A stretch of DNA of 32,626 nucleotides. Source: a virus. Taxonomy: Duplodnaviria > Heunggongvirae > Uroviricota > Caudoviricetes. The notes below the pieces were generated by a model. That model ran no database searches, was not told the DNA's origin, and saw only the letters and a program-made list of their open reading frames with translations. Positions within the stretch are counted from its first letter, which is position 1. Each line of letters starts with the position of its first letter. Location: IMG/VR virus record IMGVR_UViG_2778261384_000002. The stretch is one strand, 5' to 3'. The position numbers and the translations under genes were made by a program. This document shows positions 5,162-32,626 of the stretch, piece after piece.

Positions 5162-7255
5162 TTACCACCAAATTCTGACAAAACCTGGCGAACCATTGCC
5201 GCCATTACTTTTATTCAGCCCACTACAACTACCGCCAGAACCGCCCGCGCCGTATCCTGTCCCGTTACTACAACCTGATGGAATTCCTTTCCCACCAAGC
5301 CCGAATGGGCTATTTTCGCCGTCGCCAGCGGTCCATATTGTTGATTTAAGGCCATTGAATTCAGCCGGATCCCAAACGCCACTGTTCAGTAATCCACTGC
5401 CGCCCGCGGCTGAAACACCTCCGAAACTAGAAGAACCGCCAGCACCACCAACAATCAGCGCCGTGCCTGATGCAGGGATCGCACCAGCACCGCCAGCACC
5501 TACAGCAACAGAAACAGCCGCCCCCGGCGAAACGGCGACTATTGCAATAGCAATTTGAGCGGCGCGCCCTCCTGGTGCTGGCTTGTAGTAATTGGTGGAC
5601 GATGGGGCCGCGCTGCCGCCAGCACCGCCCCCGATCATTTCCACGAAAACTTTCTTTACCCCGGCAGGGACAGTAAATGTCCCGTTTGCAGTAAACAGGG
5701 CAAAATTACCGAAATAGCGCAAATCGGCGTTTGCCGTCGTGATAAAGTCCGGCGCGCCGGTAATATCGGACCAGGAGTGTTTATGGTTGGCAGCGGCTGC
5801 GCTTACGTCGCTGTACGTCAGCGTAATATCCGCTGACAGTGCCTTATTGTTCACCTTGCGCGTTGTTGGCACGGCGTTTACGTCGCTGTACGTCAGCGCA
5901 ATGTCCGCTGACAGCGCCTTATTGTTCACCTTGCGCGTTGTCGGCACGGCGTTTACGTCGCTGTATGTCAGCGTAATATCCGCTGACAGCGCCTTATTGT
6001 TCACCTTGCGCGTTGTCGGCACAGCGTTTACGTCGCTGTACGTCAGCGTGATGTCCGCTGACAGCGCCTTATCGTTCACCTTGCGCGTTGTTGGCACGGC
6101 ATTTACGTCGCTGTACGTCAGCGCAATGTCCGCTGACAGCGCCTTATTGTTCACCTTGCGCGTTGTCGGCACGGCGTTTACGTCGCTGTATGTCAGCGTA
6201 ATATCCGCTGACAGCGCCTTATTATTCACCTTGCGCGTATCCTGCACCGCGTGAACAATGCGTGGATCATCTGCTGCGGCAACCTGCCCCGCCAATTGCC
6301 CTACGTTGCACACCGCTGCGCCACCCAGCCCCAGATTTACGCGCGACTTGCCTTTATCATCCAAATCAGCCAAGTTTTGCGCCCGGCGCAAGTAGCGCTT
6401 ATCCAGATCGTCACTGTTACGCACTGGACGTAAATCAGTGACTGCCCCATCTGCGGCAATTTCAGCAATTTTAAATACATAGTGGGTTTTCCCCGCAGCA
6501 TCCGAATATTCAGCCAGATCGCCCGACGTAATGACGCAGATATCAGTGACCGGCACGCAGGCAGTCATTACAGACCCCTGCCAGACGGTATCCAGCCAGA
6601 CGGCGGCGGGTTTAGTCCCGACCGCGACATCCTGCGCGGCTTCGTTCGCCAATCGCAAACCGGCCACATAACCCAACCCCGGCAGGCAGCTATATTTCAC
6701 CCCGCTACGTTGAACCAGCCACCCATCATCAAAAAACAGCGCACTGCCGTAATGATCGATATTCAGTAAACGCTGATAATCATCAATACCCGTCAGACGG
6801 GCGGTAAAATCGATCTGCCACGTTTCGGCAGGCGTATTAATCCCTGTCTTTTCTGCAGCACCGTTAAATTCAATCAAAAACGAGCGAGTAAACGCGTTTC
6901 CCTGTTCCGTCGCCGTCGTTTTCACCTTTTCCAGCGCCGGGACCGTTGTCACCATCGCTAAAAGGCCCGTTTTTTTGCAAATCAGGCCGATCCAGTTAAA
7001 CGAAAAATCGCCGACGTTTGTTCCCAGGGTAAACGAGTACGCTACCGTGTTTTTGTTAACCACGCCCGCAGCGTTGACGGGTTCGCGGTAAACAATTTGC
7101 GCAGCATCCGGCAGACCGGCGTCACGGTTTATCACCGCACCCGGATCAAGGCCGGGCACATTAGCCAAAACAAATTCATCCAGCGAAATGTCGCCCGGCG
7201 TCAGCAGATCAGCGGCCTGCCACTGCTCAAATGCCGTCGTGATAATTGTTGCCAT
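5162..7255 (-). CDS. Tail fibre protein with tandem fibre repeats and glycine-rich C-terminal domain
   Basis: 697 aa; six tandem 26-aa repeats (TRKVNNKALSADITLTYSDVNAVPT) typical of phage tail-fibre repeat units; Gly-rich C-terminus; follows the gpI-like gene as in P2 (H after I). Confidence 0.8.
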   Translation of the reverse strand: MATIITTAFEQWQAADLLTPGDISLDEFVLANVPGLDPGAVINRDAGLPDAAQIVYREPVNAAGVVNKNTVAYSFTLGTNVGDFSFNWIGLICKKTGLLAMVTTVPALEKVKTTATEQGNAFTRSFLIEFNGAAEKTGINTPAETWQIDFTARLTGIDDYQRLLNIDHYGSALFFDDGWLVQRSGVKYSCLPGLGYVAGLRLANEAAQDVAVGTKPAAVWLDTVWQGSVMTACVPVTDICVITSGDLAEYSDAAGKTHYVFKIAEIAADGAVTDLRPVRNSDDLDKRYLRRAQNLADLDDKGKSRVNLGLGGAAVCNVGQLAGQVAAADDPRIVHAVQDTRKVNNKALSADITLTYSDVNAVPTTRKVNNKALSADIALTYSDVNAVPTTRKVNDKALSADITLTYSDVNAVPTTRKVNNKALSADITLTYSDVNAVPTTRKVNNKALSADIALTYSDVNAVPTTRKVNNKALSADITLTYSDVSAAAANHKHSWSDITGAPDFITTANADLRYFGNFALFTANGTFTVPAGVKKVFVEMIGGGAGGSAAPSSTNYYKPAPGGRAAQIAIAIVAVSPGAAVSVAVGAGGAGAIPASGTALIVGGAGGSSSFGGVSAAGGSGLLNSGVWDPAEFNGLKSTIWTAGDGENSPFGLGGKGIPSGCSNGTGYGAGGSGGSCSGLNKSNGGNGSPGFVRIWW
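5795..6250. repeat. Tandem direct repeat, about 78 bp x 6, in-frame inside the tail fibre gene
   Basis: Unit cgtcgctgtacgtcagcgtaatatccgctgacag...ttgcgcgttgtcggcacggcgtttacgt recurs with 78-bp period and a few point differences. Coordinates approximate. Confidence 0.8.
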
Positions 7256-7261
7256 TGTTAT

Positions 7262-7795
7262 TTATTCCCTGATAAGTGACGCGGCGTGACACACATAGTC
7301 ATTGTGTACGCTGCCCGCCTGAATATTGATCGGCGTGGATGTTAACGACTGGAAGCGATAGCGGCGACAGGTGCGCCCGTACTGCCGGACGATTTCACGC
7401 AGCAGATCACCGTGTTCAGAGATCTGCCGGTCGGTCAAATCCAACAAAATGACGTCCCAGTCAATACCGTCTACACGCTCATTTATCCCGACAAAACCTA
7501 TTTCCAGCCGTTCAAATATCCGGGCAAAACCCGCCGTACTGCCTGCATCCTGCGCATTAATGAACGCGTAATTCACGCGGCGACGGAACAGATCCAGCGG
7601 CTCCGCGTTTAAGCGGGTGACGTCACGCTGCCAGGCCAGCAAAAAGAGGATCGTTTCGTTACAGGTCAGCGCATCAAACTGCTGCAACGGCCAGCGCAGC
7701 CACGCATCAAGCCAAAGCCAGAAACGTTTGCACGCTGCCGCCAGCTTTTGCGGTTCGCCTTTGTTCATCCAGCTGGGCAATTTAATGTTCATCAT
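7262..7795 (-). CDS. Baseplate/tail protein, P2 gpI-like
   Basis: Start taken at ATG overlapping the gpJ-like stop (ATGA), giving about 177 aa; motifs LAWQRDV...RRRVNYAFINAQDAGSTAGFARIFERLEIGF resemble P2 gpI as recalled. Confidence 0.55.
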   Translation of the reverse strand: MMNIKLPSWMNKGEPQKLAAACKRFWLWLDAWLRWPLQQFDALTCNETILFLLAWQRDVTRLNAEPLDLFRRRVNYAFINAQDAGSTAGFARIFERLEIGFVGINERVDGIDWDVILLDLTDRQISEHGDLLREIVRQYGRTCRRYRFQSLTSTPINIQAGSVHNDYVCHAASLIRE

Positions 7796-8976
7796 GCGCT
7801 GCCCCATTTCACGCTTAATGACCGCAGGCGCGGAATATTCAGTTCACTGACGATGTCATCAAGAGAAAATTCAACAGACGACAGGGCGGGAAACGCCTCG
7901 TGAATTTCTTCACCCAACTTAGAAAAGCCAAACCGCGACCAGGGCCACGTTTTGGTAACGTCATACGCTGAATTCTCACGAAACGCGCAGCGCACCATGT
8001 TTTCAACGACCCCCGGCAGATCAGCACGTTCAGCATCGGTAATCATCGCGTTATCCGGGATGTGAAGCGTCACTTCCAGTTCATGAAAGGTTTCCGGCAT
8101 AGGGAAACATTGCATATCGTCGCCGTGTCCGTGGTTTCCCTGCCCCATCACGTAATCATTTACGGCTGCAATAAACGGATCACTGATCACACCTGCATCC
8201 AGCAATAAATACGCGTTAGCTGTTCCCGGTCCGCGCGGGGCGTCATGTAAAAAGAAAATGCGAGCGGTGCTCAATCCGGCCACACTGGCGATCGCCGAGC
8301 GATACACGGCGTCAATGTGATAGTTACCCACGACGTTAAACTGGTTACGGATACGCGGGCGAAATTCGTCGTCAGACTCACGATCAGCGCCTGGCTTCGT
8401 CAGCCAGTCATCGCCGGTCGTCACTTCCGCAACTCCCGCCACCGCGACGGGTAAAACATGGTAATAACCGGGCGCAAGGTTCCAGGCACTGCCCGCAGTA
8501 TCAGCCGTACAGGCGATCGATAGCTGCGCAATACCTGCGGGGATCATCGTCGTCGCATCCACAATCAGGCGATAAACTTCACCGTTAACGCGTTCTGTCT
8601 GAATGACAGTACCTGCCGGAATTGTCACATTTTCATCAGCACTGGTTTTAATAAACGTCACTGCACCCTGGGCGCACGTCGCCGCCTTACGTTCCAGACG
8701 GACCGCCCACGCCAGCAGGTCAAGCCACGTCCCGATCGCCGTAGCAACAAAAAGGTTAGTCAGAACCACATCTGCCAGCACATCACGCAGCCACAGCACC
8801 GGTTTAGTGACAATGGCGGAAATCAGACGCCAGAACGGCGACATTAACGACGTGTTAGTGACCAGCCCTTCATCATCGGCGACAGTCTGGAACTTCGCCT
8901 GAATTTCCTTTTCCGTACCCGGCAGGCCCGCGTCATCCAACAGGGCGCGGTAATCGGGTTTAGGTGTATCACTCAT
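7792..8976 (-). CDS. Baseplate J-like protein
   Basis: About 394 aa from ATG at 8976 (MSDTPKPDY), overlapping the upstream ORF by 8 nt; size and position between W-like and I-like genes fit the baseplate J family. Confidence 0.6.
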   Translation of the reverse strand: MSDTPKPDYRALLDDAGLPGTEKEIQAKFQTVADDEGLVTNTSLMSPFWRLISAIVTKPVLWLRDVLADVVLTNLFVATAIGTWLDLLAWAVRLERKAATCAQGAVTFIKTSADENVTIPAGTVIQTERVNGEVYRLIVDATTMIPAGIAQLSIACTADTAGSAWNLAPGYYHVLPVAVAGVAEVTTGDDWLTKPGADRESDDEFRPRIRNQFNVVGNYHIDAVYRSAIASVAGLSTARIFFLHDAPRGPGTANAYLLLDAGVISDPFIAAVNDYVMGQGNHGHGDDMQCFPMPETFHELEVTLHIPDNAMITDAERADLPGVVENMVRCAFRENSAYDVTKTWPWSRFGFSKLGEEIHEAFPALSSVEFSLDDIVSELNIPRLRSLSVKWGSA

Positions 8977-9304
8977 AAACAACCTCAACTGGATCAATCA
9001 GTCCGAATTCATAGGTTTCTGCCGTCACAATGACGCGGCCTGCCGCTTCCTCATACACGCGCACCGTTCCGGGGATTAGGCGGTTATCCGTTTCCACCAT
9101 CAGAATAATTTGCAGATAAATATCATTGCGCATGACAGCGGAACGCTGGCCGATAAGGTGCGTTGCCAGATTGCTTTCAATGATGCCGTGTTTAATGTCC
9201 TGACCAATGCTGACACGGTTGTCACAAAGCGTTGGTTCACGTCCGGTATTTAAAAGAAAATCGCCGTTAACAATTTTCAGATCGATATACAGTTTTTCAG
9301 TCAT
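8969..9304 (-). CDS. Small baseplate protein, gpW/gp25-like (DUF2590-type)
   Basis: 111 aa directly downstream of the tape measure gene and upstream of gpJ-like; size and position fit a gpW/gp25-type wedge protein. Tentative. Confidence 0.45.
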   Translation of the reverse strand: MTEKLYIDLKIVNGDFLLNTGREPTLCDNRVSIGQDIKHGIIESNLATHLIGQRSAVMRNDIYLQIILMVETDNRLIPGTVRVYEEAAGRVIVTAETYEFGLIDPVEVVYE

Positions 9305-20618: not shown

Positions 20619-21647
20619 ATGGCAAAACGTAAAAAGCAACAACCAGCCCCCGCGCCAGCTATTCAAAAACAGATGTCTTTTAGCGTGGAATTCGGCGACG
20701 CCGAGCGCGTGCCGTGCCTGGGTTCATATGATGGCGTAACGGATGAAGGGGACGGCTACTGGACGCCGCCCATTGACCGGGAATCGCTGGCAAAATTGCC
20801 CGACATCGCAACGTACCACGGCGCATGTCTGGGGGCGCGCGCAAAAATGGTCGCTGCGGGTTTTCTGCGCGGCGGCGGTCTGACGCCTGAAACCGCGCTG
20901 GCACTGGCCGTTAATTTCGTGACATTCGGTGATGTCGCGTTGCTGAAAATCCGTAACGGTTTCGGGCAGGTTGTACGCCTTTACCCGCTGCCGTCTGTTT
21001 ATGTGCGGCGTTCCACAGATGGCAAAACAAAATTATTGTTACGCGACGGTGAATATAAAGAGTATGCCGCAAAAGATATTATCTTTATTCGTCAGTATGA
21101 TACGTTGCAGCAGATTTACGGAAAACCGGATTATTTAGGCGGAATCCAGTCGGCGATGTTAAACAGTGACGCGACCATGTTTCGCCGTAAATATTACCGC
21201 AACGGAGCGCACTTAGGTTATATCCTGTACGCGACCGATCCGGACTTATCGCCGGAAATGGAAAAAGAAATTTCAGAAAAGATAGAACAATCAAAAGGTG
21301 CAGGTAATTTCCGCAGTATGTTTATTAACATCCCCAACGGTAAACCGGACGGCGTTAAAATTATCCCAGTGGGTGATGTCGCAACAAAAGACGAATATGT
21401 GAATATTAAGCGCATATCCGCACAGGACCAGTTAACCGCCCATCGTTTCCCGCCCGGCCTTGCGGGCATCATTCCGGATAACGTGGGCGGGCTGGGCGAT
21501 CCGTTAAAAGTCCGAGCCGTATATCAATTAGATGAAGTCTGGCCCATGCAGGCGCTAATTGAGAATGCAATCAATAGTGATTCCGAAATTACCCGCGCAA
21601 TGCAGGTGTTATTCAAAAAACCGAAAGCGATAGAGGATGAAAAATAA
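20619..21647 (+). CDS. Portal protein, P2 gpQ-like
   Basis: 342 aa directly after terminase P; size and order match the P2 P-Q operon. Confidence 0.9.
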   Translation: MAKRKKQQPAPAPAIQKQMSFSVEFGDAERVPCLGSYDGVTDEGDGYWTPPIDRESLAKLPDIATYHGACLGARAKMVAAGFLRGGGLTPETALALAVNFVTFGDVALLKIRNGFGQVVRLYPLPSVYVRRSTDGKTKLLLRDGEYKEYAAKDIIFIRQYDTLQQIYGKPDYLGGIQSAMLNSDATMFRRKYYRNGAHLGYILYATDPDLSPEMEKEISEKIEQSKGAGNFRSMFINIPNGKPDGVKIIPVGDVATKDEYVNIKRISAQDQLTAHRFPPGLAGIIPDNVGGLGDPLKVRAVYQLDEVWPMQALIENAINSDSEITRAMQVLFKKPKAIEDEK

Positions 21648-21964
21648 TGGCTAAACGGTTAAAATATACCCCGTTCAAAAATAGATTAAGGGGAATCAAA
21701 TTGCGCAGCCCGAAAATTATCTGTCCGGAATGCAACGGCAATTCAACGATCAAAAAGACCGTGCGGAAACATCCCCATCTATCAGATGTTTATTGCGCCT
21801 GTAATAACGTTGAGTGCGGTCATACTTTCGTTGTAAATATGACATTTTCCCACACCCTAAGCCCCAGCGCGCTTTCATCAGACCGCGCTATCAAAACGCT
21901 TATCGATATGATGTCACCCGGCCAGCGTCAAATCGCTTTAAACCTTTTACAGCCCAACATGTAA
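21647..21964 (+). CDS. Ogr/Delta-family zinc-finger late transcription activator
   Basis: 105 aa with CPEC...(22 aa)...CACNNVECGHTF, matching the Ogr CxxC-N22-CxxxxC zinc-finger arrangement; start overlaps the portal stop. Confidence 0.7.
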   Translation: MAKRLKYTPFKNRLRGIKLRSPKIICPECNGNSTIKKTVRKHPHLSDVYCACNNVECGHTFVVNMTFSHTLSPSALSSDRAIKTLIDMMSPGQRQIALNLLQPNM

Positions 21965-22006: not shown

Positions 22007-22786
22007 TTATTCAGTTTCTTGTAAAAGATGCTCTTGTAAATTGCTTTCGGCAGCATCAATCCAAACAGACATACTCTCAACAAAATTAGAAATATCTTCC
22101 AACGCTTTGATTAAAATATCTTTACTGAGCGTGATTTTAGTACCTTCTTTATCAAAACCATTTCTATGTACTATGTCATGTCGTATCTTTGCAATTTTAC
22201 AAACCTCTGGTATTTCTTTCTTAACATTATCTGGAACTTTCTCTCCAAGCACAGCGCCGTAAACTTGGACAGTTTTTTCAATGTTATGGTACAAGTAGTC
22301 AGAAAACTTTCGAATAGCCACGGTTTTAACTATATCTGGATTTAAGTATACGTCTTTTAATGATAATTTTTCTTTTTTTAACTCTTCAACATCATCTATT
22401 GCATTTTCAAAAAAATGATTATTCCTAAGAATTAGACTTTTTATCATGTCACCTAGACATGTTTCCATCAGAGTTATTGAATAAGAGTACATCATTTTCA
22501 ATGCTGACTCGGAAGGCTTGGAAGTAATATCGTCTTTCAATTCTTCCATTTGTTCGCTGAATTGCCTGTACGCATAATTTTCTGACCCAAGCCGGAAAAC
22601 TTCATCCTGTAAAAATTCATCTTCCCAATAATCATCATCTGTAAATTGCCCAGATAGATATTGCGCCTTTAAGTCTTCCCACTCCTCATCACCCGGCTCG
22701 ACCCCCAGATCCGCATGTTCCCTTATCCACTCAATCATAGCTTCTTCAGCTTCACAAGCCTCAATGTATCGTTTTACTGAACCCAT
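22007..22786 (-). CDS. Accessory protein with HEPN-like R-x4-H motif (candidate abortive-infection RNase)
   Basis: 259 aa in a distinctly AT-rich segment; AGGGGA Shine-Dalgarno 6 nt upstream of ATG; acidic N-terminus; C-terminal KIRHDIVHRNG contains an R-x4-H motif of the kind found in HEPN nucleases. Confidence 0.45.
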   Translation of the reverse strand: MGSVKRYIEACEAEEAMIEWIREHADLGVEPGDEEWEDLKAQYLSGQFTDDDYWEDEFLQDEVFRLGSENYAYRQFSEQMEELKDDITSKPSESALKMMYSYSITLMETCLGDMIKSLILRNNHFFENAIDDVEELKKEKLSLKDVYLNPDIVKTVAIRKFSDYLYHNIEKTVQVYGAVLGEKVPDNVKKEIPEVCKIAKIRHDIVHRNGFDKEGTKITLSKDILIKALEDISNFVESMSVWIDAAESNLQEHLLQETE

Positions 22787-23010: not shown

Positions 23011-23292
23011 ATGAATAATGATTTATTAGACTGGCACAAAGCCGACATAATAGCCGCAGTCCACAAAAAAGGGACATCTTTAGCCGCACTTTCTCGCGGG
23101 GTAGGTTTAGGCAGTTCAACGCTTGCAAACGCTCTCACACGTTCTTGGCCGAAAGGTGAAAAGATTATTTCCACTGCGATCGGTGTCGAACCGTGGATCA
23201 TCTGGCCGTCACGCTACCACGACCCAATCACACATGAATTTATTGATCGTGGGCGAATGATGAAAGCACCGAAAAAACAAAACAGCCTTTAG
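23011..23292 (+). CDS. Ner/Nlp-family HTH DNA-binding regulator
   Basis: 93 aa; LDWHKADIIAAVHKKGTSLAALSR...STLANALTRSWPKGE...WIIWPSRYHDPITHEFIDR closely matches E. coli Nlp / phage Mu Ner as recalled. Confidence 0.65.
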   Translation: MNNDLLDWHKADIIAAVHKKGTSLAALSRGVGLGSSTLANALTRSWPKGEKIISTAIGVEPWIIWPSRYHDPITHEFIDRGRMMKAPKKQNSL

Positions 23293-26585: not shown

Positions 26586-27588
26586 AGAATTCACTCCCCG
26601 CGCTCGCACAAAAATCGACACTGTCACAAGCTCCACAGCCGCCATCCGGGCAACCCCAAACCGCGCGGCGCTGGGTGTCACAACTACACGGACGGCCCGT
26701 AATCAGGCGACCCCCGCAATATTCACAATGTGGGATATATCCGATCACTTCTTTTGCAGGCTCGCGTTTGCTGGTATTGGCACTGACTGACCGCTGAACA
26801 TTAATTTCCTGAAATGTGAACGGTGCGTAGATTTCTCGCGTGGCGGGCGTGTCGCTGTTGGAAATAACAACCTTTGCAGCACCTCGCGCGCTTATTTCTA
26901 ATAATCTCTGAACTAAGCGGCGGTGGTTGTCCTGGCTGAAGGTCTGCCCATAATATGTGGTAAAGTCTGCTGTTTCGCTGGCGGGTAAATATGGCGGATC
27001 GCAGTAAATAACGAGATTAGGCCCGAAGGGCAGCATTGATAATGTGTCATCAAAATTCATATTGATAAACACCGCATTTGTATCATTCGCCTTTTCTGCA
27101 AACTGCCGGATCTCCTGTTCGGGAAAATACGGCGCTGTCTTATGTCGACCAAACGGAACATTGTATTCCAGTTTATTGTTATAGCGACAAACGCCGTTAT
27201 AACCGTGCCGATTCAAATAGAGAAACCGCGCCGACTGCATTAACGACAATCGCTGCGATGGATATCGGCACCAATCTTTGCGGCAACTTGAATTTAATTC
27301 ATTAAATTCTTTGCGAATCTTTAAATAATATTCTTTTGAATTACCTTCTTTGAATAATTCCCGCGCAACGCAAATAAACAGATTAGTACTATGTTTCACA
27401 TGTTCATACGTGTTTATCAGATCTGAATTAATGTCAGCTAAAACATACTTATCATAACTTGTGTTTAAAAATACCGAACCGCCGCCAACAAACGGTTCCA
27501 TCAGACAATAACCCTTCGGCAAGTGCGGCAGCAGCTCAGGCAAAGCGCGAGTTTTTCCACCTGCCCACTTCAAAAACGGTCTGATCAT
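26572..27588 (-). CDS. Dam-family N6-adenine DNA methyltransferase with Cys-rich C-terminal extension
   Basis: 338 aa; motif I EPFVGGGSVFLN and motif IV DPPY; C-terminal about 60 aa carries 10 cysteines (CEYCGG...PCSCD...GCPDGGCGACDSVDFC). Confidence 0.8.
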   Translation of the reverse strand: MIRPFLKWAGGKTRALPELLPHLPKGYCLMEPFVGGGSVFLNTSYDKYVLADINSDLINTYEHVKHSTNLFICVARELFKEGNSKEYYLKIRKEFNELNSSCRKDWCRYPSQRLSLMQSARFLYLNRHGYNGVCRYNNKLEYNVPFGRHKTAPYFPEQEIRQFAEKANDTNAVFINMNFDDTLSMLPFGPNLVIYCDPPYLPASETADFTTYYGQTFSQDNHRRLVQRLLEISARGAAKVVISNSDTPATREIYAPFTFQEINVQRSVSANTSKREPAKEVIGYIPHCEYCGGRLITGRPCSCDTQRRAVWGCPDGGCGACDSVDFCASAGSEFYDED

Positions 27589-27806
27589 TTTTTATATTCC
27601 TTGTTATATCGTTCGTGAGTTAATAAAGTCCATTGCTGGCCGTCGTTTTTACTCAGTAACCGCCAACATCTGCCGATTGCAATTGACAGATAACCAGTCG
27701 CCAGCCGCCGCACTTTATCGCGGCGACCCTGTCGGAATTCACTAATTAAATTGTGTGCCTGATCAACAACGTAGGCGGGGCAATTATCATTTTTCCGGCG
27801 AATCAT
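27585..27806 (-). CDS. Small hypothetical early protein
   Basis: 73 aa, basic; overlaps both neighbours in the early operon; no motif recognised. Confidence 0.3.
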   Translation of the reverse strand: MIRRKNDNCPAYVVDQAHNLISEFRQGRRDKVRRLATGYLSIAIGRCWRLLSKNDGQQWTLLTHERYNKEYKK

Positions 27807-28669: not shown

Positions 28670-28903
28670 TTAAAAATAGCGTTTAATTAATTTAATCAGT
28701 GCGGCTATTACGCCCCTGTTTATTTTTTGCGTGTACACAAAAGGCTTGTTTCTGCCCTTAATAAACTGAACTCTTGACGGCTCCGGCTTAAAATAACGCC
28801 CGTCCGGTGTTTCAATCCAGCCGCGCGTCGATTTACAATGCGTGACCTGGCAACCGTTGCGTAATAGACTGGCGAATGAAGGAAATTGTTGTTCACTCAT
28901 AAC
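28670..28903 (-). CDS. Small hypothetical early protein
   Basis: Internal start MSEQQF... about 77 aa, overlapping the upstream small membrane ORF by 7 nt; basic C-terminus. Confidence 0.3.
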   Translation of the reverse strand, partial: VMSEQQFPSFASLLRNGCQVTHCKSTRGWIETPDGRYFKPEPSRVQFIKGRNKPFVYTQKINRGVIAALIKLIKRYF

Positions 28904-29118
28904 AGACACTCTAAAAGGGAGGCGACGCCAAATATTAGCAGCCAGCCACAAAATACATCTAAAAATAATGGTGCCGCCGCTTCAATATCCCTGTGTAATG
29001 CGTCAATAAAACGGATTCTGTTGCTACTGTTTTTTAATCTTCCGTAGGACCAAACAACAACGGCCCCCAAAATAAAAACCGCAACATTAAATATCCCCGA
29101 AAAAAAATATTGGCTCAT
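28897..29118 (-). CDS. Small membrane protein (two predicted TM helices)
   Basis: 73 aa with two hydrophobic segments (NVAVFILGAVVVW and FCGWLLIFGVASLL). Confidence 0.35.
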   Translation of the reverse strand: MSQYFFSGIFNVAVFILGAVVVWSYGRLKNSSNRIRFIDALHRDIEAAAPLFLDVFCGWLLIFGVASLLECLL

Positions 29119-29378: not shown

Positions 29379-29794
29379 TTAAACGCTGTCGTTTTTGTCA
29401 GGCTGGCTTCGGCGGTCATAAAAGCTCTGGCATACCATGCAACCATATTGATTTGTCTTAGTTCTCGACGATTCGGATCGACACGCGGAACTAATGGCAG
29501 ATAGCCGCGCTCCGCATCGCTTTGAACCTTACGCAAAGACTGTCCGAAGAATTCGGAAAATTCCTGCACTGTTAAAACCGGTTTAATGCCACTACTAAGG
29601 ATATGTTTCAGTGCGCGGTCAATTGCCATTAGTTCACGTTCAGAACGACTATCAGGGGCTCGCCAAGCGCGGCGCTGATGATTGCTTTGAGTCTGTTCGG
29701 GTAAAAACGCGCCTTGTGCCAGTTCAACAACCGGGTAGTAACCAGGATCAGTCTCCTGATGTGCGGGTAAAGCTCTGTTTTGCTCTGGTGTCAT
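29375..29794 (-). CDS. Cox/Apl-like HTH excisionase-regulator, first gene of early operon
   Basis: 139 aa; AGGA Shine-Dalgarno before ATG; segment LTVQEFSEFFGQSLRKVQSDAERGYLPLV parallels the P2 Cox HTH as recalled; divergent from the C repressor gene. Confidence 0.45.
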   Translation of the reverse strand: MTPEQNRALPAHQETDPGYYPVVELAQGAFLPEQTQSNHQRRAWRAPDSRSERELMAIDRALKHILSSGIKPVLTVQEFSEFFGQSLRKVQSDAERGYLPLVPRVDPNRRELRQINMVAWYARAFMTAEASLTKTTAFN

Positions 29795-29886
29795 TTGATA
29801 TCCTGTCGGTTTAGATTGGTTTCGTTTGTGCTCAACGGGGTACGTATTTGTACCCTTGGCGTAATATTAAGGGGCAAATTTGTACC
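29795..29886. promoter_or_regulatory. C/cox-type switch region with candidate operator repeats
   Basis: 92-bp gap between divergent Cox-like and C genes; direct repeat ATTTGTACC x2 about 32 bp apart, the second abutting the C start codon; overlapping GGGTAC/GTACCC inverted repeat. Confidence 0.45.
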
Positions 29887-30156
29887 ATGTCAACATTACT
29901 GGGCGAAAAAATTCGACTTATACGGGAAGCGGAAGGCCTCACCCGAGAGGATTTCGAAGCAATGACCGGCATACCTGCCGGAAATACAAAACGTTATGAA
30001 ACTGGTAGAACAAAAAGTATCGGTAGTGACTTTTTAACCAAAATTACTAATCACCCCAGATTCCAGCGGTATACGCTATGGCTGATGTCTGACATCACCG
30101 CACCAGAAGCAGGTCAGATAGCACCAGTTACCAAAGAAGAGAAAAAGACCGGTTAA
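29887..30156 (+). CDS. Immunity repressor, P2 C-type
   Basis: Track ORF begins with TTG at 29848; ATG at 29887 (AAGGGG Shine-Dalgarno) gives 89 aa; motif RFQRYTLWLMSDITAPEAGQIAP matches P2 C as recalled. Confidence 0.7.
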   Translation: MSTLLGEKIRLIREAEGLTREDFEAMTGIPAGNTKRYETGRTKSIGSDFLTKITNHPRFQRYTLWLMSDITAPEAGQIAPVTKEEKKTG

Positions 30157-30198
30157 TCACCGCCCGCACTGCGGGCGAATAATACATAAGGAAAATGT

Positions 30199-30648
30199 AT
30201 GTCAAAAGATAATGATACATTTATACCCCCAATACGCCCACCTCGTAATTCCCGCTATGGAGAACCATCACCAGAACTTATGAAAAGGCTACAACAAGTT
30301 ACCCCTGAATTATTCGCTGAATTTTTGATGTCAAAAAACGCCGCTCAGTTCTGCATATCATGTGGATTCACTAAATTAACAATGTCCGAAAATGGAGTTT
30401 ATAGTGGCGCGAAGATTCCCGAGAACTATGATTCTTTATCGCAAATCGATCAGGAAAAATTCGTAGGTGATAATACTCTCTGGTATGTAACGCCCGTGTT
30501 TGTGAATACTCATACAAAAATAAGATTAGCCGATGTCGAATATAAAATTAATTGCCCAAACTGCGGGCATATCAGCATTTATCGCGCCCGCCCGGTCGTC
30601 GCATGGATAGAAGAGAATCGCAAGGAATGCAAAAATGAGTCAGACTAA
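30199..30648 (+). CDS. Hypothetical zinc-ribbon protein (accessory cassette gene 1)
   Basis: 149 aa; AGGA Shine-Dalgarno; two CxxC pairs (CISCG and CPNCG) about 68 residues apart; AT-rich codon usage unlike the phage core. Confidence 0.5.
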   Translation: MSKDNDTFIPPIRPPRNSRYGEPSPELMKRLQQVTPELFAEFLMSKNAAQFCISCGFTKLTMSENGVYSGAKIPENYDSLSQIDQEKFVGDNTLWYVTPVFVNTHTKIRLADVEYKINCPNCGHISIYRARPVVAWIEENRKECKNESD

Positions 30649-31069
30649 GGATAATGTTCATCATATAAGAGAACGTCAGGTACCCATAAATAATGAGTCC
30701 ACAAACAGTAGTGACGACGGAGGCAACGGCATGAACAGCCTAATAAAACGCGTTGAAAAACTTGAAGACAATACCGGTGTAATTGTTAAAGAACTTACCC
30801 ATCTCAATGCGCGCGCTGATGACTTCGCCTCAAAGGGAGATCTGCGTGAACTCAAGGCGCAGATAACTGGGGATATGAAAGAACTCCGTGCGCAGATGAC
30901 CGGAGATATGCGCGAGCTTAAGGCACAGATTAGCGGCGAACTCAAAGAGTCCAGGTCAGCAGCCAGGGAAGATCTTGCAAAGGGATTACATAAGCAAATG
31001 ATATGGCTATGCTCTGCCCTTTTCGCTACAGCAGGAGTCATAATCGCTTTGGCAAAAGGTCTGCTCTAA
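30635..31069 (+). CDS. Coiled-coil protein with C-terminal transmembrane anchor (accessory cassette gene 2)
   Basis: 144 aa; start overlaps gene 1 by 14 nt with AAGGAA Shine-Dalgarno; three and a half 11-residue repeats (GDLRELKAQIT / GDMKELRAQMT / GDMRELKAQIS); hydrophobic C-terminus MIWLCSALFATAGVIIALA. Confidence 0.5.
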   Translation: MSQTKDNVHHIRERQVPINNESTNSSDDGGNGMNSLIKRVEKLEDNTGVIVKELTHLNARADDFASKGDLRELKAQITGDMKELRAQMTGDMRELKAQISGELKESRSAAREDLAKGLHKQMIWLCSALFATAGVIIALAKGLL

Positions 31070-31250
31070 TTGTGCGATATATTACTTTTTAATAAATTAT
31101 ACAAAAAATATACAACATATATTTTATATTGATTGATAATTACCATTTATTACATACATGAATTACTGATAAGCAGTTTTGGTTAAAATCTGTTCGTGTG
31201 CGAACAATACATTTGCGCCCTGAATGCCAATAATAGCAATCGAGGTGTAT

Positions 31251-31529
31251 ATGTCCTTGCGTAACCGCTTATTCTTGATAATTAATGCTGAAAATCTCAC
31301 TATCTGCAAATTCGCGATGTTTTGTGATATTTCGAAGAAGACACTGTATCAATTCAGGCAGCAAATAATAATGACGCTGCCTGATATTGATTTATTAAAG
31401 ATAGCCCGAAACCCCAGATTCAATAAATACACGTTATGGATGATGACAAATAAGACCGCAGCATCATCCGGGCAAATCGACCCGGCGCTTTTCCCTCTTC
31501 GCTCGCCAAAACAATCTATTAACCAATAA
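31251..31529 (+). CDS. Second P2 C-type repressor paralog
   Basis: About 92 aa from ATG at 31251 (GAGGT Shine-Dalgarno); motif RFNKYTLWMMTNKTAASSGQIDPALFP matches the C-repressor signature; lies immediately upstream of int. Confidence 0.6.
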   Translation: MSLRNRLFLIINAENLTICKFAMFCDISKKTLYQFRQQIIMTLPDIDLLKIARNPRFNKYTLWMMTNKTAASSGQIDPALFPLRSPKQSINQ

Positions 31530-31633
31530 CCCGAACTGGCAACAAATTGAACAGTTATATATTGCTGCGCGTGTTACCCAGTTCAGTTCGTCAGCAAATG
31601 ACGACCAGCATTCACAGCCGGAGAAAATGACAA

Positions 31634-32626
31634 ATGACCATTACTAAAAAGGACAACGGAAAATACATGGTTGATGTTCGGCCTGCGGGGCGTTCCGGGA
31701 AGCGCGTCAGGCGTTCATTCTCCACTAAATCAGAGGCTGTCACCTTTGAACGCTGGATAATAGCCAGTGCTAATAATAAAGAATGGCTGGAAAAACCAGC
31801 TGATCGGCGTCGGTTATCTGAACTGATCGAATTGTGGTGGAAGAACCACGGGCAAACGCTCACCGACTGCAAAAACCGGTTATGGATTTTGAATGCGTCA
31901 TGCGCGCGCTTAAATAATCCACGTATAACCCAACTCACCGCCCAGCTTTTTGCAGAGTACCGAACAAAACGGCGGGCAGAAGGGATCGCGCCAAAAACGT
32001 TAAATAATGAACAACGTTACCTGAAGTCAGTGTTCAGTAAATTGAAAGAACTGGATCTCTTCTGGGATAACAACCCAATGACTGGACTCGCAGAACTGAA
32101 ACTGGCCGAATCAGAACAGGGATATTTTACTGACGAACAGATTAGAACGGTTCTGACAGAGTTAACAGGCGACAACAAGCTGATAGCCAAACTTTGTCTG
32201 TCCACCGGTGCACGATGGAGTGAAGGTGCAAAATTAACCAGGCAGAGACTGGTTAACGGCATGGTGACATTTACAAAAACTAAAAATGGCAAATCACGTT
32301 CAGTTCCTATCGGTAAGGAACTGGAAATGGAGTTAATGCAGAGGATTGAAGCACACGATAAACAACTGATTTTCCCGGATGCGAGCTATCAGACTGCACG
32401 AAAAGTTATTAAAGGCGCTGTTCCTGATCTACCTGACGGACAGGCAACCCACGCTTTCAGGCACACTTTCGCCTCTCATTTCATGGCAAACGGAGGAAAC
32501 ATATTGGTACTTCAACGAGTCCTGGGCCATCACAAAATCCAACAAACGATGACTTATGCTCACTTTGCCCCTGATCATTTGTTTGATGCGGTGACATTAA
32601 ACCCATTAGCTACGATGAAAATATAA
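31634..32626 (+). CDS. int: Tyrosine integrase, P2 Int family
   Basis: 330 aa; N-terminus ...DVRPAGRSGKRVRRSF.TKSEA..FE and C-terminal GQATHAFRHTFASHFMANGGNILVLQRVLGHHKIQQTMTYAHFAP (R...HxxR...Y catalytic motifs) match P2 Int as recalled; stop codon is the last base of the window. Confidence 0.9.
   Translation: MTITKKDNGKYMVDVRPAGRSGKRVRRSFSTKSEAVTFERWIIASANNKEWLEKPADRRRLSELIELWWKNHGQTLTDCKNRLWILNASCARLNNPRITQLTAQLFAEYRTKRRAEGIAPKTLNNEQRYLKSVFSKLKELDLFWDNNPMTGLAELKLAESEQGYFTDEQIRTVLTELTGDNKLIAKLCLSTGARWSEGAKLTRQRLVNGMVTFTKTKNGKSRSVPIGKELEMELMQRIEAHDKQLIFPDASYQTARKVIKGAVPDLPDGQATHAFRHTFASHFMANGGNILVLQRVLGHHKIQQTMTYAHFAPDHLFDAVTLNPLATMKI

Follow-up and report, generated by a model that had tools for sequence, protein, structure and literature searches.

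The IMG/VR virus record IMGVR_UViG_2778261384_000002 comprises 32,626 nucleotides (hereafter, the window) of an Escherichia coli P2-like prophage with genes for tail, capsid, portal, gpA, Dam, Fil, and a cox-like protein. Between two C-type repressor genes, upstream of the integrase gene, it carries a pair of overlapping genes, which are the subject of this study and are named ORF149 and ORF144 (ORF, open reading frame) after the lengths of their products in residues. The cox-like gene (29794-29375, minus strand) is divergent from C1 (29887-30156), an immunity repressor of the P2 C type that matches phrog_147 (E 3e-27) and carries an HTH_31 domain. C1 and all the genes downstream of it are located on the plus strand. 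A GC hairpin of 7 bp without a U-tract (30161-30177, plus strand) separates C1 from ORF149 (30199-30648), which encodes a predicted cytosolic four-cysteine zinc-ribbon protein. ORF144 (30635-31069) overlaps ORF149 by 14 nucleotides, and its predicted product is a tail-anchored coiled-coil protein of the inner membrane, with DUF1640/XhlA-like architecture. The pair is followed by a spacer of 181 bp with 27% GC (31070-31250), a second intact C-type repressor paralogue, C2 (31251-31529; phrog_147, E 8.5e-16), and int (31634-32626), a tyrosine integrase gene with Int_N and Phage_integrase domains; the window ends before the att-side motif. Both C1 and C2 show full-length similarity to P2 C/phrog_147 together with a helix-turn-helix domain; the identity is 37.5% between C2 and P2 C and 34% between C1 and C2. 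In the RefSeq annotation C1, ORF149, ORF144, and int are present and C2 is missing. The coordinates and the phrog_147 matches thus bear out the initial annotation, made from the sequence without database searches, which had placed two genes between two C-type repressors upstream of int and had described a 149-residue double-CxxC protein, the 14-nucleotide overlap, and a 144-residue coiled coil with 11-residue repeats and a membrane anchor. The 2 kb from 29700 to 31700 recur as 99-100% identical copies in 7 of 5426 complete E. coli genomes, adjoining mipA/yeaG.

The region had also been described as an AT-rich cassette, which is true of the spacer but only mildly so of the genes. The GC contents of ORF149 and ORF144 are 0.40 and 0.46, compared with 0.42-0.49 for the neighbouring early genes and 0.50 for the window, whereas the spacer is among the lowest few 181-bp segments of the whole 50%-GC window. 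No terminator, Rfam match, att-type motif, or cox remnant was found in the spacer. Its origin as a cox remnant or non-coding RNA was rejected on the lack of a cox-like ORF and of an Rfam hit and on a fold z of 0.08. An old att site was likewise rejected, as the conserved motif TGATCCACAAAxTGACCACA is absent from the spacer and lies 3' of int in this prophage. The short repeats GCGAATAATACAT and GCGAACAATACAT (30175 and 31200) were considered as insertion scars and are too short to be told from chance. Regarding expression, the pair lies on the C-to-int (lysogenic) strand, as first proposed, and is positioned for transcription from the C1 promoter along with C2 and int. The hairpin after C1 has a fold energy of -16.4 kcal/mol (z -2.8) and is 100% conserved in the IMG/VR contig L020, a version of the same prophage. 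It was not called in a terminator scan, which gave no intrinsic terminator between C1 and ORF149, and no promoter or terminator signal in the window rose above shuffle expectation. Because no terminator is called and the hairpin has no U-tract, the arrangement suggests that the pair is transcribed from the C1 promoter.

ORF149 features two CxxC knuckles, C52/C55 (30352-30363) and C119/C122 (30553-30564), and these four cysteines, along with W136, are invariant across 74 homologues. Remote-homology and structure searches, which the initial annotation had proposed, gave a match of its residues 27-144 to positions 7-120 of the 124-position profile of phrog_4293 (E 7.8e-20), a PHROG family of unknown function. 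The earlier view that neither protein belongs to a nameable family is therefore only partly upheld: ORF149 falls in phrog_4293 and ORF144 is DUF1640/XhlA-like, but phrog_4293 is without assigned function, and the ORF149 model has no fold match in PDB or BFVD. No Pfam, NCBIfam, or PADLOC model scores above threshold; likewise, no curated zinc-ribbon family exceeds its cut-off and no fold likeness to a solved zinc ribbon was found. An exhaustive phmmer search of 1.84 billion representatives returned 51 clusters of homologues, and alignment-driven searches returned about 85 clusters at 90% identity, none of them bearing a Pfam domain; a word-indexed protein search with the single ORF149 sequence returned its own cluster only. 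All the named clusters belong to Enterobacterales, namely Escherichia, Salmonella, Klebsiella, Serratia, Yersinia, Providencia, Pectobacterium, Citrobacter, Cronobacter, Pantoea/Mixta, Buttiauxella, and Raoultella. An AlphaFold2 model built from the 74-sequence alignment is confident (predicted local distance difference test score, pLDDT, 88; predicted template modelling score, pTM, 0.75). Its first 24 residues are of low confidence and without secondary structure, and are followed by two helices, an alpha/beta core bearing both knuckles, and a long C-terminal helix. The family is acidic, with a median isoelectric point of 5.4, which suggests protein binding rather than nucleic-acid binding; a nucleic-acid-binding role was disfavoured on the same ground. 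Taken together, the model and the alignment describe ORF149 as an acidic cytosolic protein with a predicted zinc ribbon and an otherwise unmatched fold.

ORF144 consists, in order, of an N-terminal tail of 32 residues (30635-30730, its frame open in all loci) that closes with a Gly/Asp run forming a hinge, a helix, the sequence F-A-S-K-G-D (residues 64-69; 30824-30841), a second helix, an invariant tryptophan, and a transmembrane helix. The second helix forms the stalk and is built of four 11-residue (hendecad) repeats, KGDLRELKAQI, TGDMKELRAQM, TGDMRELKAQI, and SGELKESRSAA (30833-30964); correspondingly, Tandem Repeats Finder detects a 33-nucleotide period of 1.9 copies in the gene. The single C-terminal hydrophobic helix reaches a Kyte-Doolittle hydropathy of 2.24 over residues 122-140. 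The predicted transmembrane helix, preceded by W124, which is invariant in alignment A5, covers residues 121-141 (30995-31057) and ends three residues before the stop codon. Hydropathy analysis gave no export signal and a cytosolic topology. A beta-layer motif, [aliphatic]-A-T-K-[polar]-[DE], has been described in trimeric alpha/beta coiled coils, specifically in DUF1640 membrane proteins (PMC4786415). F-A-S-K-G-D fits this motif with F in place of the aliphatic residue and S in place of T, its counterparts in relatives are FATKSD or LSTKAD, and the single-chain AlphaFold2 model shows a helix break at residues 68-69. ORF144 thus combines the two DUF1640-type traits, a beta-layer motif at the start of the stalk and a C-terminal transmembrane helix.

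The profile matches of ORF144 are, nevertheless, below threshold. Against the DUF1640/CCDC90-like family PF07798 it scores 16.7 bits, short of the 33.5-bit gathering cut-off, and three of ten relatives match that family at sub-threshold level (best E 6.8e-6; one listed score of 21.2 bits). Against XhlA (PF10779; cut-off 34.7 bits) ORF144 has no match at E 0.1 or better, and the short partners of the zinc-ribbon gene in SPN3UB and ST101-type phages score 26.4 and 29.6 bits, again sub-threshold, over positions 3-61 of the 67-position profile. An E. coli O157 relative is named 'DUF1640 domain-containing protein' in RefSeq. Searches against PDB profiles gave weak, non-significant hits to trimeric coiled coils, and PADLOC gave only a coiled-coil-level hit to PbeC of 16 bits. 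Because the Pfam hits are sub-threshold and the RefSeq name is that of a relative, ORF144 is best described as DUF1640/XhlA-like in architecture and not as a proven member of either family.

A second candidate translation start lies within ORF144, where the sequence GGAGG (30719-30723) precedes an in-frame ATG encoding Met33 (30731-30733). This arrangement is conserved: an internal in-frame ATG after the Gly/Asp run, preceded by Gly codons that read as a Shine-Dalgarno-like sequence (GGAGG, GGAGGTG, or GGGGG), was present in all 23 diverse partner genes considered. Gene callers often choose the internal ATG as the start of the partner gene, but the frame upstream of it is always open and always coupled to the zinc-ribbon gene, and the tail encoded there has a conserved aromatic-Pro motif (for instance DFPK, DYPR, or VPLxFP). 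The conserved internal Shine-Dalgarno-like sequence and ATG, with the upstream frame kept open, suggest as the simplest reading that two isoforms are made, a long one and one of 112 residues starting at Met33. The stalk varies as well. In two otherwise near-identical E. coli prophages, the partners of 134 residues (L010, 5602-6006) and 145 residues (L011, 5602-6039) differ by exactly one 11-residue repeat, and therefore stalk length is polymorphic.

Homologous pairs were found at more than 70 loci. The loci inspected came from phages of Klebsiella, Salmonella, and Serratia, from P2-like prophages of Klebsiella, Serratia, E. coli, Yersinia, and Providencia (L002 to L018), and from IMG/VR (60 loci), and at every one of them the zinc-ribbon gene is followed by a partner gene on the same strand. 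At the 60 IMG/VR loci, without exception, the start of the partner ORF lies 37 to 0 nucleotides ahead of the zinc-ribbon stop, and 59 of the 60 partners end in a hydrophobic or transmembrane helix, the exception having a different C-terminus. In this geometry, the ORF144 gene is translationally coupled to that of ORF149. Compared with a 95%-identical relative, ORF149 shows 8 synonymous and 4 non-synonymous changes and ORF144 shows 4 of each, in genes where non-synonymous sites outnumber synonymous ones by about 3.7 to 1, a pattern that indicates purifying selection on both. Because of the more than 70 homologous pairs and the excess of synonymous change, the two can be taken as real genes and not chance ORFs. 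The family is essentially restricted to phages, with a single plasmid homologue, and is patchily distributed. Among about 104 records of P2-like phages in INPHARED, a single one has a homologue, and of the 5426 complete E. coli genomes, 7 hold the window version and 39 the type located downstream of int. In a further E. coli prophage (L080), an intact and family-typical zinc-ribbon ORF (2015-2428) is unannotated in RefSeq; because such intact genes are missed, annotation-based counts of the family are too low.

The two proteins do not diverge uniformly along their lengths. Over 21 distinct loci, the identity of the zinc-ribbon protein correlates with that of the partner's N-terminal tail (Spearman 0.52) but not with that of its coil and membrane part (Spearman 0.05). 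For instance, L050 and L053 have zinc-ribbon proteins with 92% identity and coil-plus-membrane parts with 14% identity, whereas L080 and L010 have zinc-ribbon proteins with 30% identity and coil-plus-membrane parts with 99% identity. As zinc-ribbon identity tracks the tail and not the coil and membrane part, the alignments place the unit boundaries at the hinge, with zinc ribbon plus tail and stalk plus anchor as the exchange units and the hinge as their joint. The co-variation further suggests that the tail is the binding partner of the zinc-ribbon protein.

The position of the pair varies among relatives. Comparison of int-C junctions with those of other P2-like prophages, another check that had been proposed, showed that the pair usually lies after int and sometimes before it. 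Most P2-like prophages have cox divergent from a rightward series of C, int, the pair, and att, and at such loci the ORF149 homologue starts 2-3 nucleotides past the int stop or overlaps int. At four loci the pair lies between a repressor and int, and in one Providencia P2-like element the pair adjoins ogr. In siphoviruses of the SPN3UB/ST101 type, the pair follows the arc/ant region and precedes the tape-measure gene, far from int, and in SPN3UB a terminator-like hairpin, and possibly a promoter of its own, lies upstream of it. A simple insertion between C and int, as first envisaged, does not fit this picture, in which most relatives have the pair beyond int and in which the pair, spacer, C2, and int of the window form one block. 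On the other hand, the presence/absence polymorphism and the different insertion points are those of accessory cargo, and the description of the pair as a moron, not a conserved core element, is sustained by its varied positions and by its rarity in INPHARED. No near relatives of C1, C2, or int were found in other E. coli genomes, and the Int protein has no relative among GTDB representative genomes. No close relative lacking the pair was found that could serve as an 'empty site' comparator for the order of events behind its placement between C1 and C2.

The att-side motif mentioned above is conserved near that end of diverse P2-like prophages. It lies just downstream of the pair at five loci, and at L001 it follows int in the form TGATCCACAAAATGACCACA (8975-8995). 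It is probably an Int or integration host factor (IHF) binding element of attP.

Comparison with two IMG/VR contigs separates the immunity region from the rest of the operon. L020 and L021 represent the same prophage and are 95-100% identical to the window over the 7.4 kb compared, the sole divergent stretch being 29795-30093, with 46-65% identity. This segment comprises the cox/C intergenic region, with the presumed Pe/Pc operators, and most of C1, which is 62% identical to its counterpart in the heteroimmune relative. Since only the presumed operators and most of C1 diverge, C1 is the exchangeable immunity determinant, and everything from the end of C1 through the hairpin, pair, spacer, and C2 to int is inherited as one block. 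C2 is 97-98% conserved in L020 and L021, intact in both versions, and shows 3 non-synonymous and 4 synonymous changes, which is weak evidence that it is functional. The idea that C2 confers immunity against a resident heteroimmune phage was not retained, as the searches gave no near-identical C in any phage or prophage. Within C1, positions 29935-29968 match a CRISPR array of E. coli J6 exactly over 34 of 34 nucleotides (NZ_CP195973.1, 2923796-2923829), which means that a CRISPR spacer has been acquired from the immunity gene of this phage type.

From these observations it is very probable that the pair is genuinely an accessory module belonging to the lysogeny operon and has the architecture described. 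What it does is a more tentative matter, and the role proposed here, phage exclusion or abortive infection by means of a membrane lesion, is plausible without being probable. In this proposal, the pair would share a transcript from the C1 promoter with C2 and int, the zinc-ribbon protein would cap the N-terminal tail of the long ORF144 isoform at the inner face of the membrane, and a shorter isoform would be made from the conserved internal Shine-Dalgarno sequence and ATG. The complex would remain idle at the membrane in the lysogen until a cue from a superinfecting phage released or re-arranged the stalk. The freed transmembrane helices might then damage or depolarise the membrane, and the infection would be aborted.

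The nearest known precedent is an analogy. In lambda, cI-rexA-rexB places an immunity repressor, a soluble protein, and an inner-membrane protein on the lysogenic transcript as an accessory unit dispensable for phage growth. RexB is polytopic, and the function of Rex has been demonstrated. The pair resembles Rex in being an accessory module and in its order of repressor, soluble, and membrane genes on the lysogenic strand, and in the proposed role it would follow the same logic with unrelated proteins. Nevertheless, neither protein has sequence or fold kinship with Rex, ORF144 is predicted to be a single-pass tail-anchored coiled coil and not a polytopic protein, and the function of the pair is a prediction. 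The accessory genes old, tin, and Z/fun of P2 are also patchily distributed among P2-like prophages and expressed in the lysogen, as is predicted for the pair; however, their proteins are unrelated to those of the pair, for which no exclusion phenotype is known. Membrane-anchored coiled-coil stalks with a beta-layer motif at the start are likewise characteristic of the DUF1640/CCDC90-like proteins (PF07798), including MCUR1, CCDC90B, and prokaryotic relatives (PMC4786415). ORF144 differs from them in its sub-threshold score, in having no globular head domain, in its Gly/Asp hinge with an internal start, and in its obligate zinc-ribbon neighbour.

The surroundings of the pair in relatives offer some context for a defence role. 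The positions that the pair occupies are among the minor defence hotspots of P2-like prophages: in a 2026 survey covering thousands of these, the int-att interval accounts for 3% of systems and the int-primase interval for 8% (PMC13586616). The main hotspots are gpA-gpQ and the tail region and not the repressor-int operon. At the Yersinia locus L015, a Septu system (6305-8409; PtuA, E 3e-83; PtuB, E 1e-28) is located immediately downstream of the pair, and at L022 the pair is followed by one unidentified ORF and then by an AbiJ-like gene (7280-8182). In these two P2-like relatives, both the Septu system and the AbiJ-like gene lie between the pair and the prophage end. In lambda-like phages of Mannheimia, an XhlA-domain gene with one transmembrane helix directly adjoins cI (PMC4553209).

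Several points weigh against phage exclusion as the role of the pair. Neither protein matches the defence-system models of PADLOC 2.0, and the association with defence genes is confined to two loci. Because the siphovirus pair of the SPN3UB type is located after arc/ant, behind a terminator-like hairpin, expression in the lysogen is not a general property of the family. Moreover, a classical block of DNA injection is unlikely, because the partner has almost no periplasmic part. Additionally, the zinc site, the trimeric state, the isoforms, and the complex are model-based predictions, and the tentative defence role is read from sequence and genomic context.

Among other explanations, a toxin-antitoxin or addiction module is an improbable one, in which the membrane stalk would be the toxin and the zinc-ribbon protein the antitoxin, and which would stabilise the int-att end or the prophage as a whole; a module of this kind might in addition work by abortive infection. 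Two small coupled genes, soluble first and membrane second, are what this explanation predicts, XhlA-type proteins participate in membrane lesions in PBSX, and the sensor-plus-tail and coil-plus-membrane parts recombine as modules. It is countered by the lack of likeness to known toxin-antitoxin families in Pfam, NCBIfam, and PADLOC, by the acidity of the zinc-ribbon protein, which has no DNA-binding domain for autoregulation, and by the coupling of the pair to int in P2-like relatives, where it does not form an autoregulated operon of its own.

A lysis accessory is still less probable. Here ORF144 would be an XhlA-like holin partner that tunes the timing of lysis, and its isoforms would act as a holin/antiholin pair. 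PBSX XhlA, which acts with the holin XhlB, is likewise small, begins with a coiled coil, and has a single transmembrane helix at its C-terminus; the SPN3UB and ST101 partners match its profile almost end to end at 26-30 bits, and the conserved internal start would suit a dual product. These scores, however, are below the 34.7-bit cut-off, and ORF144 of the window has no XhlA match. XhlA is encoded in a lysis cassette beside holin and endolysin genes, whereas the pair in the window lies between repressor and integrase genes, and no lysis cassette contains or adjoins the pair. A zinc-ribbon partner, an N-terminal tail, and hendecad repeats are not known for XhlA. Furthermore, the pair of P2-like phages is on the lysogenic strand by int, opposite to the late operons, and most P2-like phages lyse without it.

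A regulator of lysogeny seems about as improbable as a lysis accessory. A membrane-tethered complex might act on Int, Cox, C, or induction, for instance by keeping a factor at the membrane, and the tight linkage to int, with starts 2-3 nucleotides past its stop or overlapping it, would agree with such a role, as would the inheritance of the pair, C2, and int as a block while C1 is swapped. Against this, the siphovirus pair is far from int and the Providencia pair lies by ogr, most P2-like phages have no pair at all, and the variable defence cargo beside the pair is what would be expected of hotspot cargo. Least probable of all is a lysogenic-conversion factor that targets host physiology instead of phages, for example envelope stress, the organisation of the membrane, or virulence: ElaB and YqjD are indeed tail-anchored coiled-coil host stress proteins, but ORF144 is cytosolic in topology and lacks an export signal, members of the family are confined to phages, and the virulence role that the authors of the Mannheimia study suggested for phage XhlA-domain genes (PMC4553209) makes for an idea resting on the misleading Pfam name 'haemolysin XhlA'.

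Phage exclusion can also be given a broader form, which is less likely than the role as such. The pair would then represent a new modular class of prophage abortive-infection system, widespread in temperate phages of Enterobacterales, though this is doubtful at present. In that class, a co-evolving sensor, made of the orphan-fold zinc ribbon and the tail, may be joined by the hinge to an exchangeable effector, a division that is no more assured than the class itself. With similar reserve, the Gly-rich hinge may double as an internal ribosome-binding site, and the effector may be trimeric, tail-anchored, and made in two isoforms, expressed with either the repressor or the integrase. The pair is a good candidate for a phage-exclusion module and not yet evidence of a new mechanism. 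If it does exclude phages, two uncharacterised families, one of them without a known fold, would form a defence system located in the little-mined repressor-integrase operon of P2-like prophages. It would also offer a simple model for a cytosolic sensor controlling a single-pass membrane effector, the parts of which are defined by natural domain swaps. Irrespective of function, comparison with the heteroimmune relative narrows the immunity determinant of this phage to about 300 bp, int is adjoined by a conserved second C-type repressor, and the internal start points to ORF144 being made in two isoforms.

Other genes of the prophage deserve mention. In the gpA-gpQ hotspot, an AT-rich ORF of 259 residues (22007-22786, minus strand) scores 29.2 bits against a RiboL-PSP HEPN domain with a cut-off of 28.4 bits and may encode a defence RNase; it has no PADLOC match. 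The same hotspot region includes an Ogr/Delta zinc-finger gene right after the portal gene (21647-21964, plus strand) and an HTH_35 winged-helix gene beside the HEPN ORF (23011-23292, plus strand). The early operon carries a gene for a cell-division inhibitor of the 186 Fil type (28670-28951, minus strand; Pfam E 2e-18) and, at about 27585-27806 on the minus strand, a gene annotated in RefSeq as 'ParE family toxin-like protein'.

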